This document shows positions 59,071-64,000 of a stretch of DNA of 64,000 bases, in pieces. A program made the position numbers. Each line of letters begins with the position of its first letter. The first letter of the stretch is position 1. This DNA is from Escherichia coli (GTDB lineage Bacteria; Pseudomonadota; Gammaproteobacteria; Enterobacterales; Enterobacteriaceae): the NCBI RefSeq assembly GCF_003018255.1, contig NZ_CP027441.1; one strand, 5' to 3'.

Positions 59071-62000
59071 TAACGGTGGGTTACCCCCAAACGAATCGGA
59101 AAATCGATACTGGAAAAACTCTACCCCGGTGGCCAGTTTTGTTAAGCACGTTAAATTTTGGAGGATATGCCCTCCAAAACAATAATCTGTATGAACAACC
59201 AGAAGACTTTCCTTAATACTGTAAATGCAGCTAAATCAACAATTGCAAAACCGCCCCAAGCTCTTCTGAAAGATAAAAAGCACCAAATACATGAGCAAAA
59301 ATCATACATTCAACACCATTCAATAACATTTAGTTAAGAAAAACAACAACGAATCGATTCAGCAAACATTTTCAACAAGAAAAATACTTTATATATCCTT
59401 TCCGGTTTTATAAACGAGACCTGAGCTCTCTTGGAGAGACAAATGTAAATTTGTCACACAGACGACAGCAGCCGGAACATTACAAATGCCGCCTGACAGA
59501 CCAATAACAACAGTAATGATGCTGAATTTGTTTTCATTGAGGAAATGACATGCACCAATACCTGCTTTTTTTACTGGGACTTACCCCACTTTTGACAATG
59601 ATCATTTTGATTCTGAAAGTCAAAATGCCCATACATTATGCCGTACTCAGCACACTCTTTATTACACTGATTCTTGCAATTTTGTTCTGGCACACACCAG
59701 TTCAGGACCTGGGCTCTGCTGTTGTATACGGAGCAATCAAAGGTCTGTGGCCGATAGTAATAGTCATACTTGCGGCCATTTACAGCTATAACCTGATGAA
59801 TGCGACAAAAAGCATGAACATTCTGCGAAATGTTCTGGCCGGTGTCAGTGATGATAAACGTATCCAGGTGCTTCTTATCTCATGGTGTTTTGGTGGATTT
59901 CTTGAGGCGGCGGCTGGGTACGGTACAGCTGTAGCAATCCCCATTGGTATACTCATTGCTCTGGGCTTTAACCCTCTAAAAGCCGCAATTGCATCATTGG
60001 TTGCTAATACAGTACCTACCGCGTTTGGTGCTGTCGGCATACCTGTATCAGTACTTGCTGAACAGGTAAATTTACCCGTAACAACCCTCAGTGGGACGAT
60101 TATTCTTCAGTTGGCAGCGTTCAACATTCTGCTTCCCTTCGTTATAGTCGCTATTATTGGGGAAGGCCTGAAGGCTATACGAGGCGTTGGGTTCATGACC
60201 TTAATGTGCGGTGTGAGCACATTAATCCCACAGTATCTGATGGCTGTTTATCTTGGCGCAGAACTTCCGGCTTTCGCTGGAAGTCTGGTCAGCCTGATCG
60301 TTATTGTCATTATGGCTAAAAGCCGTAAAGAAAAAACAGAACCAGAATTTCTTATTGAGGTTTCAGGAGATAGCGCTGGTGCACTTTCATATTCCCGTGG
60401 GGAGTTGTTCCGGGCCTGCTCAATCTACATCCTGATTTTTCTGTTTATTCTTCTTTGCTCTCCATTGTTCCCGACTGTAAAAAGTGCAGTATCTCAGGTT
60501 GCTTCGTCACTCAGCTTCCCTCTGACTGACGGCAACAATCTGTCTATGACGCTCGAATGGATCGCAACCCCCGGTGTTCTGATCATCATTGCCAGCGTTA
60601 TTGGCGGATTGATTCAGAAAGCATCCCTGTCATGCCTGTTAAACGTATTTGTCAGTACGGTAAAACAGCTCAAAAACTCCATTATTGCTATTTCTGCAAT
60701 TGTCGCTATGGCAACGGTAATGGATATTTGTGGGTTAATTGGCACACTGGCACAGAGCCTTGTGGATCTGACAGGTGGAGCCTACCTCTTCATTGCTCCA
60801 GTTATAGGTGCTCTTGGTACATTTGTTACTGGCAGTGACACAAACTCCAACATTCTGTTCGGTAAGTTGCAGACTACTGCGGCTGAAAAGTTGCACGTAG
60901 ATCCACTCTGGCTGGCTGCTGCAAACACATCTGGCGCGACCGGTGGCAAGATGATTTCTCCCCAAAGTATTGCTATCGCTGTTTCTGCCACACGTATGGA
61001 TGGTCAGGGCAGCGTCATTATGTCCGGGACACTGAAATACTGCTTTGTCTATATTGTTATCCTTGGACTGAAAATAGGCCTGATCTACCACCTGTTCATG
61101 GTCTGAGAAAAGAGCAACAAAAGGACATGGGATATTAATCAACAGGAGATATTTCTGTGAATGTTAACTTTTTCGTCACCTGCATTGGTGATGCTTTTAA
61201 ATCCCGGATGGCTCAAAACAGCGTGCTGTTACTGGAGCAATTGGGTTGCAATGTCCATTTTCCCGAAAAACAGGGATGTTGCGGTCAGCCAGCGATAAAT
61301 GGCGGTTATGTTCGTGATGCCATCCCGGGCATGAAAAACGTCATATCTTCGCTGGAAGAGAATGACTGGCCAGTTATATCTCCCGCGGGATCATGCACCT
61401 ACACGATAAAAAATTATGCTCATTATCTCAGTGATGAGCCTGAATGGGCTGCTCGGGCTGAAAAAGTGGCTGAACGTCTGCATGATTTGACATCCTTTAT
61501 CGTAAATCATCTCGGCATTACTGATGTTGGGGCAAGACTCAATGGGCGTGCAGTATTCCATCCCTCCTGCAGCCTTTCCCGTAAGCTGGGTATAACCAGA
61601 GAACCGCTTTTGCTACTTGAGAATGTGCGGGGACTTGAACTGCTTCCGTTTCACGCTCAGGAGACATGTTGCGGGTTTGGCGGCACGTTCTCCGTAAAAA
61701 TGGCAGAGATTTCTGGCGAAATGGTGAAGGAGAAAGTCGGGCATATTATGGATGTTAAACCTGATTTTCTTATCGGAGCTGACGCCAGTTGTCTGCTAAA
61801 CATCGGCGGTCGGCTTAGCCGTGAAGGGCATCCTGTAAAAGTGATGCATATTGCTGAAGTCCTGATGCACAGATGAGGTAAACAGAATGTCTTTGAAAAC
61901 AAGTGATATCAGGTTTAAAGAGCGTATCCGTATTCAGATTCAGGACCCGATCATGCGAAAGGCTGTCGCTAACGCACAGGAGCGCATAGGGACTAATCGA

Positions 62001-64000
62001 CAGAAAATGGTTGATGAACTGGGGCACTGGGAGGAATGGCGTTCACGTGCAGAACAAATTCGTCGGCATGTTCTGGAAAATCTTGATGCCTATTTGTATC
62101 AATTGTCCGAAAAGGTTACTGCGAATGGCGGGCATGTATATTTTGCCCGTACCAGAGAGGATGCAACCAGTTACATACTGAAGGTGGCGAAAGAAAAAAA
62201 CGCCAGGAAGGTTGTTAAATCCAAATCAATGGTGACTGAGGAAATTGGCATGAACGCCGTTCTTCAGAAAGCCGGGATACCCGTGATTGAAACAGACCTT
62301 GGGGAATACATTCTTCAGCTTGCACACGAACCGCCATCACATGTGGTTGTTCCGGCAATACATAAAGATCGCCATCAAATCCGCAGAGTGTTAAACGAAC
62401 ATCTGGGGTATGAGGGACCAGAAACTCCTGAAGCAATGACATTGTTCATCCGTGAGAAAATCAGACAAGATTTTCTCAGTGCAGAAGTTGGTGTAACGGG
62501 ATGTAACTTTGCTGTTGCAGAAACAGGGTCAGTCTGCCTTGTTACAAACGAAGGCAACGCACGTATGTGCACCACATTACCTAAAACACATATTGCTGTT
62601 ATGGGGATGGAGCGTATTGCTCCGACATTCCAGGAGGTGGATGTTCTTATTACCATGCTTGCAAGGAGTGCTGTCGGGGCCAGACTGACGGGTTATAACA
62701 CCTGGCTTACAGGTCCAAGAGAAGAAGGACATGTTGACGGCCCGGAAGAGTTCCATCTCGTCATTGTTGACAATGGGCGTTCAGAGGTTCTTGGCTCAGA
62801 ATTCAGCGATGTATTGCGCTGTATTCGCTGCGGTGCCTGTATTAATACCTGTCCCGCTTATCGCCAGATTGGTGGACATGGCTATGGCTCAATCTACCCG
62901 GGCCCAATCGGAGCAGTTATTTCCCCGTTGCTTGGTGGCTATGAAGACTTTAAGGACTTACCTTATGCCTGTTCATTGTGCACTGCCTGCAATGGGGTAT
63001 GTCCGGTAAAAATACCTCTGGCACAACTAATACAAACACATCGGCAGGTTATGGCAGAGACCAAAATAACACCATCAACAGAACGCCGTATAACCGGAAT
63101 ATTCAATTACGTAAACAGTCATCCGGCATTGTGGAAAGTTGGCATGATTGCTGGCGCGAAAACAGCCAGTCTGTTCATCAGGAAAGGTAAAACTCCGATT
63201 AGTGTTGGAGCGATAAAAGAATGGACTGAAGCCAGAGATCTACCATCACCTGATGGAGAAAGCTTCCGTAGTTGGTTCAAGAGATATAAAAAAGGAGGGT
63301 AACTTTATGGAAAACAGAGATGAGTTTCTCGTTGCGATCGCCAGAAAGCTTGGCAGAGCAGTAAAACACACTCCCGAAGCAATGCCGGAACCTGTAAATA
63401 CGCTGGCTTCGACACGTTTAACTGAGTTGACATCAGATCAACGCTGTGAGGATTTTATTAAATTTGCTTCAGAAGTGATGCTTGCCGAGTGTGTGCTTGT
63501 ATCACCCGATGAAGCTCCCTCAAAAGCATTAGATCTCTGTTGGAAGTTCGGTTCCGGGCCTGTCATTATCAGTAACGATCAACGGCTGTTTGATACGGGG
63601 ATTGCACCACTTCTACAAAAAGAGATGGGCGCTGTCCTGTGGGCCCCGGAGAAGGGTGAGGAAAATATTCATCTTGCAGAAAAGGCAAAAACAGGTATCG
63701 TTTTCGCTGAGTATGGACTGACCGAATCAGGAGGTGTTGTCTTATTCTCCGCCCCAGAACGAGGGCGTTCAGTAAGTCTTTTACCTGAAGCGTCGGTGTT
63801 CGTTTTACGCAAAAGCACCATTCTTCCCAGAGTGGCTCAGCTTGCGAAAAAACTTCATGGTATGGCTCAAAAAGGACAACGAATGCCTTCCTGTATCAAT
63901 ATAATTGGAGGACCAAGTTCAACTGCCGATATAGAGTTGATTAAAGTTGTCGGTGTTCATGGCCCTGTATATGCAGCCTATCTAATCATTGATGACTGCA

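Follow-up and report, generated by a model that had tools for sequence, protein, structure and literature searches.

We analyzed the 3' end of a 64,000-nt stretch of Escherichia coli DNA (hereafter the window; RefSeq assembly GCF_003018255.1, contig NZ_CP027441.1), where a lactate permease gene, lutP, is followed on the same strand by lutA, lutB and lutC, three genes resembling lutABC of Bacillus subtilis and ykgEFG of E. coli (Table 1). Open reading frames (ORFs) listed for positions 57000-64000 leave gaps of 50, 10 and 4 nt between the four genes. This spacing and the Pfam and TIGR00273 matches described below agree with the original prediction, made from the sequence alone, of a permease followed by three tightly spaced genes for an iron-sulfur (Fe-S) lactate-oxidizing complex. 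The permease gene had been called complete, which holds; lutA and lutB are complete as well, while lutC remains open to the window edge. In plasmid pO113 this gene has 699 nt, equivalent to window positions 63307-64005, and the window thus lacks its last 5 nt: the stop codon and, before it, two bases of the terminal Lys codon.

Table 1. Features at the 3' end of the window, in window coordinates
Feature	Position	Strand	Remarks
IS3-family transposase orfB remnant (rve and rve_3 integrase core)	57262..58083	+	rve E 5e-16, rve_3 E 3.5e-12
Short transposase C-terminal fragments	58873..59185	+	weak rve_3, E 6e-5, 23.1 bits vs. Pfam cutoff 26.5
Non-coding leader, presumed promoter region of the operon	59187..59549	+	alignment, blastn boundaries, palindrome scan
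lutP (LctP-family lactate permease)	59550..61106	+	518 aa, complete; PF02652
lutA (ykgE-like, Fe-S subunit with two CCG domains)	61157..61876	+	239 aa, GTG start; PF02754
lutB (ykgF-like)	61887..63302	+	471 aa; LUD, two-[4Fe-4S] ferredoxin domain and LutB_C
lutC (ykgG-like LUD subunit)	63307..64000	+	231 of 232 codons within the window; PF02589

The LutP protein matched the Pfam family Lactate_perm (PF02652) over model positions 3-519 of 522 (E = 2.7e-130, 436 bits) and scored 406.9 bits with TIGR00795, above the cutoff of 341 for the LctP family. K-12 LldP and GlcA belong to the same family, but LutP stayed below the equivalog cutoffs of both (274.5 vs. 918 bits for LldP, NF007740; 249.4 vs. 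1121 bits for GlcA, NF007249). By these profile scores, LutP is a member of a separate LctP subfamily and not an LldP or GlcA ortholog. LutA contains the CCG domain in two stretches (E = 3e-31). LutB carries the Pfam domains LUD, Fer4_8 and LutB_C and passed the NCBIfam LutB/LldF equivalog TIGR00273 with 722.5 bits (cutoff 444.8; E = 1.6e-217), and full-length LutC, with the sequence taken from pO113, matched the LUD domain (E = 1e-29). The three adjacent and co-oriented genes encode, in the LutABC-type order, a CCG protein, a LUD protein with a 4Fe-4S dicluster and a LUD/DUF162 protein. A search of the PDB with LutB returned only a distant HdrC-like ferredoxin-domain match (E = 4e-4) and no template for the complex.

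The nine Cys residues of LutA (9, 31, 41, 42, 80, 138, 171, 172 and 212) coincide in position with those of K-12 YkgE, and both CxxCxxCxxxCP motifs of LutB are intact, CIRCGACINTCP at residue 312 and CSLCTACNGVCP at residue 362. All four ORFs were found intact, with neither frameshift nor stop, in six independent copies. The ratio of nonsynonymous to synonymous divergence (dN/dS) was 0.03-0.11 in comparison with chromosomal copies and 0-0.2 among plasmid alleles, showing that the genes are under purifying selection. An operon predicted to serve lactate use hence bears no sign of gene decay.

Oxidation of L-lactate is the activity reported for LutABC of B. subtilis, LldEFG of Shewanella and YkgEFG of E. 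coli. LutABC of B. subtilis and LldEFG of S. oneidensis and Helicobacter pylori fall into the same family as the plasmid set, as judged by the TIGR00273 score of LutB. The LctP permease accompanies the oxidation genes in H. pylori as well (hp0137-0139, lldEFG; hp0140-0141, lctP), where lldEFG, lctP and dld are reported to contribute to lactate utilization (PMC4117512). We consider it very probable that the four genes form a horizontally acquired plasmid operon for uptake and respiratory oxidation of L-lactate. LutP would import lactate by proton symport, as its family membership implies, and LutABC, either cytoplasmic or membrane-associated, would oxidize L-lactate to pyruvate and deliver the electrons to the respiratory chain. 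In such a complex LutA would act as the CCG-domain Fe-S protein, LutB as the LUD protein with two [4Fe-4S] clusters and LutC as a further LUD protein; substrate, stereospecificity and electron acceptor would be those expected for this family.

A different 2-hydroxy acid, such as glycolate, D-lactate, 2-hydroxybutyrate or a similar compound, could be the substrate in place of L-lactate, which we regard as very improbable. This idea draws on the failure of LutP to reach the LldP and GlcA equivalog cutoffs, on its amino acid identity of no more than 34% (33.8%) with K-12 LldP and on the resemblance of LutA to the CCG proteins GlcF and GlpC (E ~1e-24). However, LutB passes the equivalog for L-lactate oxidation by a wide margin, and the plasmid proteins are 64-84% identical to YkgEFG, whose demonstrated phenotype concerns L-lactate and not D-lactate (PMC9701030). 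The module of Citrobacter/Klebsiella type described below has a separate dld gene for D-lactate beside lutABC, implying that LutABC does not cover D-lactate. Lactate as the substrate is further supported by the linkage to an LctP permease, which is constant across genera.

This linkage emerged from an origin scan in which one genome per species was searched with the permease and LutA, LutB and LutC were then mapped on the loci. The co-linear order lutP-lutA-lutB-lutC proved to be the usual chromosomal layout in Edwardsiella, Pectobacterium, Dickeya, Serratia, Samsonia, Mixta, Kosakonia, Proteus, Budvicia, Pragia and Leminorella and, outside the Enterobacterales, in Sutterella; Citrobacter has a divergent arrangement instead. 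The scan yielded no donor species, the best permease identity outside E. coli and unnamed Escherichia sp. being 77%. Amino acid identities to K-12 are 76.6% (LutA/YkgE), 83.5% (LutB/YkgF) and 64.1% (LutC/YkgG). The plasmid proteins are therefore about as far from the host proteins (77/84/64%) as from those of other genera (78/82/67%), which argues for horizontal acquisition of the operon and against a recent duplication of ykgEFG. YkgEFG (b0306-b0308), the three-subunit respiratory L-lactate dehydrogenase encoded on the E. coli chromosome, shares with the plasmid set its three subunits, their order and domain content and the GTG start of the first gene, but the K-12 locus, situated between rclR and ykgH, has no permease gene. 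With synonymous sites saturated in comparison with K-12, the plasmid set is a diverged paralog or xenolog of the K-12 genes; we propose that it would represent a diverged ortholog set of ykgEFG that has kept the permease-linked layout of other Enterobacterales.

The location of the operon on a plasmid is firmly established. Positions 59400-64000 are 100% identical to pO113 (NC_007365.1); several further complete E. coli plasmids show the same identity, and in BLAST comparisons all 64 kb of the window were collinear with pO113 at 99.75-99.96% identity, with small indels. The window contains an IncI-type leading region (psiB, ssb, ardA), ccdAB, parM, a gene for a RepB-family replication initiator, traT, ehxCABD and sab, in agreement with the earlier description of the surroundings as a virulence and maintenance plasmid. 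The pO113 record types as IncFIB/IncI-gamma, MOBP and conjugative. On this collinearity and gene content, the window belongs to a conjugative megaplasmid of the pO113 family of Shiga toxin-producing E. coli (STEC) negative for the locus of enterocyte effacement (LEE). We propose that the operon would be a self-contained, horizontally acquired lactate-use cargo of this megaplasmid.

A chromosomal or misassembled segment might be suspected, given that relatives 88-92% identical at the nucleotide level to the plasmid block occur on the chromosomes of ~130 complete E. coli genomes. We reject this explanation. The collinearity with the complete plasmid pO113 extends across 64 kb, and all copies at least 99% identical lie on complete plasmid records. 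The chromosomal copies differ by 8-12% and have other flanks beyond -49 and +5 nt; strong homology to them is confined to positions 59502-64010, a span reaching from ~48-49 nt ahead of the ATG of lutP to ~5 nt past the stop codon of lutC.

The operon is already annotated in the identical public pO113 record and belongs to a well-known enzyme family; the RefSeq names on NC_007365.1 are L-lactate permease, (Fe-S)-binding protein, LutB/LldF and LutC. In PLSDB, 64 plasmids match the block, 60 of them with at least 80% coverage; 62 of the 64 are from E. coli and 61 are conjugative. All four genes are annotated under the match in each of the 40 plasmid records listed. The hemolysin gene ehxA is found on 576 plasmids of this database and its pO113-type allele (at least 99% identity) on 58. 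The block, with ~60 carriers or roughly 10% of the ehxA plasmid number, is missing from most ehxA plasmids. It had been proposed not to be a standard component of hemolysin plasmids, which applies to ehxA plasmids in general; it would not apply to the pO113 lineage, of which the block seems to be a regular feature, since its count nearly equals that of the pO113-type ehxA allele. This link is based on a comparison of counts between the two PLSDB sets. The ehxA matches listed are dominated by records of ~92 kb without lut genes, which we take to be of the pO157 type, and pO157 presumably does not carry the block. Further carriers of the block are an STEC plasmid typed IncI-gamma and the IncFIA/FIC plasmid of a blood isolate. 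About 20 plasmid records lie in the band of 80-90% identity.

Among 5426 complete E. coli genomes, 204 contain the block with at least 80% coverage, with 74 of the places on plasmids and the rest chromosomal. Separately from these copies, ~650 complete E. coli chromosomes match only ~500 bp of the permease gene (window 59842-60349) at ~86% identity. These matches fall in genes annotated as L-lactate permease at recurring positions, e.g., near 0.86 Mb, which suggests that E. coli has a further accessory gene of the LctP family. An unannotated piece of lutA, 493 bp long, 86% identical and equivalent to window 61167-61659, lies beside cnf2 on the bovine IncF Vir-type plasmid NZ_AP024127.1 (L095, 6001-6493) and was also seen on a second bovine E. 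coli plasmid, NZ_CP076265.1. This fragment is what is left, in decayed form, of the same module on a different lineage of virulence plasmids.

Chromosomal copies comparable to the plasmid operon reside in tRNA-Phe (pheU) islands of extraintestinal and avian pathogenic E. coli (ExPEC and APEC, respectively), such as BEN2908, and of uropathogenic E. coli (UPEC) of sequence type ST127. They have the same genes, order and spacing, and their proteins are 89-99.6% identical to those of the plasmid. Unlike the plasmid operon, the island copy is chromosomal. An integrase gene and a pseudogene fragment of a peptide ABC transporter precede it, and type I restriction-modification (R-M) genes come after it; its leader from -49 to ~-130 and all sequence downstream of lutC are unrelated to the plasmid version. 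In APEC BEN2908 the copy constitutes the first cargo of the island, after the integrase and before the type I R-M genes, beside dsbD and dicD, and the chromosomal copy of E300010 is located in an island rich in insertion sequences (IS). A sequence report on ST127 UPEC, in which function was not assayed, described a lineage-specific lutP plus lutABC beside intA and tRNA-Phe, followed by hsdMSR (PMC9769692). Sequence upstream of the island lutP (L003/L004, ~9555-9713) is missing from the STEC plasmids; this relic stems from a former genomic setting of the module and could be of use in tracing where the module came from.

To compare the alleles, window positions 59550-64000 were aligned with L003 (10050-14504) and L096 (5049-9503). 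The operon is a mosaic: lutB of E300010 and both lutB and lutC of pSTEC1588 are close to pO113, with a synonymous divergence (dS) of 0.02-0.05, whereas lutP and lutA of E300010 and pSTEC1588 differ from pO113 with a dS of 0.38-0.56. Because dS varies so sharply along the operon, these alignments indicate that plasmid and island alleles have undergone recombination or gene conversion with each other, and the plasmid operon would accordingly exchange sequence with the allele of the chromosomal tRNA-Phe islands.

Of five other E. coli contexts examined, four have IS elements flanking the operon. Remnants of IS3 and IS66 adjoin the block on IncFIB/IncI, IncI-gamma and IncFIA/FIC plasmids and in tRNA-Phe islands, with the exception of BEN2908, and in pO113 the operon lies behind transposase debris. 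The route between replicons would probably be IS-mediated recombination. The block common to STEC plasmids, as delimited by blastn against pSTEC1588, begins right behind the transposase fragment, at 59187, and runs beyond the window end. No convincing shared termini, terminal inverted repeats, target-site duplications or fixed ends as in a discrete cassette were found between contexts, and the block is flanked merely by short two-copy repeats of low identity.

A second kind of mobile lactate module became apparent when plasmids were searched with LutP by tblastn. This search returned 224 plasmids, ~149 of which match at 60-80% identity; the latter are mostly Klebsiella IncFIB/FII plasmids, together with plasmids of Raoultella, an IncHI2 plasmid of Salmonella Senftenberg and some plasmids of E. 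coli. Their module, of Klebsiella/Citrobacter type, resembles the pO113 operon in being plasmid-borne, in combining an LctP permease with lutABC and in duplicating a chromosomal ykgEFG. It differs in that the permease gene is divergent from dld-lutA-lutB-lutC, with dld as an additional gene, in its sequence (72% identity for the permease, 67-83% for the Lut proteins) and in its hosts and backbones (IncFIB/FII, IncHI2 and the IncY plasmid pFec10). In the Klebsiella pneumoniae plasmid p1_020098 (L008, 1948-8554) the module is found beside pco copper-resistance genes and toxin-antitoxin systems, and S. Senftenberg pATCC43845 (L009) provides a further example of a divergent plasmid lactate module. 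The Dld encoded by the Klebsiella/Citrobacter-type module shares 91% identity with the Citrobacter gillenii protein, and the nearest relative of the module lies on the Citrobacter chromosome, so that by sequence the module appears to be derived from Citrobacter. An LctP-Dld-YkgEFG module was described in 2020 on E. coli pFec10, and its authors remarked that why a second ykgEFG copy was acquired is not known (PMC7984374). With the tRNA-Phe island copy and this module of the Klebsiella/pFec10 type, mobile lactate modules are not unusual.

A chromosomal counterpart, which the original prediction had suggested looking for in the host, is present. ykgEFG was found with at least 80% coverage in 5163 of the 5426 complete E. 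coli genomes (95%), and in isolate 07-4299 (GCF_003019115.1) the plasmid NZ_CP027463.1 carries lutP-lutABC while the chromosome NZ_CP027462.1 has intact ykgEFG and lldP-lldR-lldD (lldPRD). Since the host chromosome contains both systems, the plasmid operon is redundant in kind and does not represent a new capability. It would add a third route of L-lactate oxidation and an extra permease to LldPRD and YkgEFG, and any benefit would consequently lie in capacity, affinity or expression conditions and not in a new pathway.

Experimentally, the nearest precedent comes from E. coli MP1, in which deletion of ykgEFG caused an L-lactate-specific fitness defect with nitrate (PMC9701030). Several observations nevertheless weigh against a working L-lactate operon of consequence to its host. 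In mouse models of colitis the phenotype was due to LldD, and YkgEFG was not required (PMC9701030); PMC7984374, citing Chai 2009, reports that YkgEFG has no lactate phenotype in K-12. A further ykgEFG-like copy may likewise contribute little. In the literature searched, no published experiment on this operon and no paper tying pO113 to lactate genes was found. The putative substrate range of LutP follows from its family, with the LldP and GlcA equivalog cutoffs not reached. Sigma-70-like promoter hits in the leader were no more frequent than in shuffled sequence, and the promoter could not be located. No regulator is linked to the operon, and none was present in eight chromosomal operons of other genera, whose flanking genes are unrelated housekeeping genes, e.g., for riboflavin synthase, MatE and elongation factor P. 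Neither an operator nor a promoter motif is conserved across genera. Expression of the operon is therefore putative. Moreover, the STEC-plasmid and island types have different leaders from -49 to ~-130, and IS-mediated capture may therefore have altered the regulation of the operon. A GntR-type regulator is likewise not linked to the plasmid operon, whereas B. subtilis has lutR.

Within the leader, positions 59502-59549, including a GAGGAAA Shine-Dalgarno sequence, are well conserved with the island copies, and an AT-rich patch at ~59300-59395 is weakly conserved. Two palindromes were identified: GAATCGATTC at 59351-59360 is one mismatch apart in the island copies, and ACAAATGTAAATTTGT at 59439-59454 was not seen in island-type upstream regions. 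Both are possible regulator sites. Directly after lutC, just outside the window, the STEC plasmids have a hairpin with an 11-bp stem and a T-run a few bases past the stem (-20.2 kcal/mol, z = -5.4), which is plausible as a terminator; in a consensus scan, terminator hits were at or below shuffle expectation.

These points also bear on a further explanation, according to which the intact operon does nothing measurable for its STEC hosts, having been swept by IS elements onto an ancestor of pO113, where it hitch-hikes with virulence and maintenance genes. Such a silent passenger would fit the transposase debris directly upstream and the IS remnants beside other copies, the lack of a dedicated regulator and of an identified promoter, the presence of LldPRD and YkgEFG in the host, the dispensability of YkgEFG in mice (PMC9701030) and the 493-bp lutA remnant on bovine cnf2 plasmids, which indicates that the module can be lost. 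We nonetheless judge it distinctly unlikely, because dN/dS remains at 0-0.2 even among plasmid alleles with a dS of up to 0.5, six copies are free of frameshifts and stops, the four genes are annotated in all 40 plasmid records listed and the block has been kept on three different plasmid backbones. The selection argument is suggestive only, as much of the divergence may predate plasmid capture. An operon for L-lactate uptake and oxidation is thus the reading that we prefer.

Upstream of the leader, the IS debris listed in Table 1, in which the weak rve_3 match is located in the fragment at 58873-59070, separates sab and the sab regulator, which lie further upstream, from the lactate operon. 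Downstream of lutC, pO113 has small hypothetical genes followed by a gene for a serine-protease autotransporter. Elsewhere in the window, within the plasmid backbone, a 1.28-kb direct repeat of ~96% identity (16833-18111 and 32917-34193) comprises a hypothetical/DUF6404 gene pair, of which the pO113 annotation lists two copies.

Plasmid- and island-borne copies of such genes have already been remarked on in print (PMC7984374, PMC9769692), and the finding has in this respect little significance beyond bookkeeping. An additional LutABC linked to a permease is repeatedly retained by lineages of E. coli under purifying selection despite the presence of LldPRD and YkgEFG. Lactate derived from the host and the microbiota fuels Enterobacteriaceae in the inflamed gut (PMC9701030), which makes a fitness role of the operon in cattle-associated STEC plausible. 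A more specific proposal, which we put forward as possible but rather unlikely, is that the operon serves as a niche-adaptation factor of LEE-negative STEC, conferring an advantage in growth or colonization on L-lactate under low-oxygen or nitrate-respiring conditions. Unlike the permease-less ykgEFG of the host, it would provide a dedicated permease co-expressed with an Fe-S L-lactate dehydrogenase. Candidate settings would be the gut of cattle, the human colon during inflammation and foods rich in lactate, and the plasmid records include isolates from cheese, beef and spinach. If true, such a role would help to explain the persistence of the pO113 plasmid lineage.

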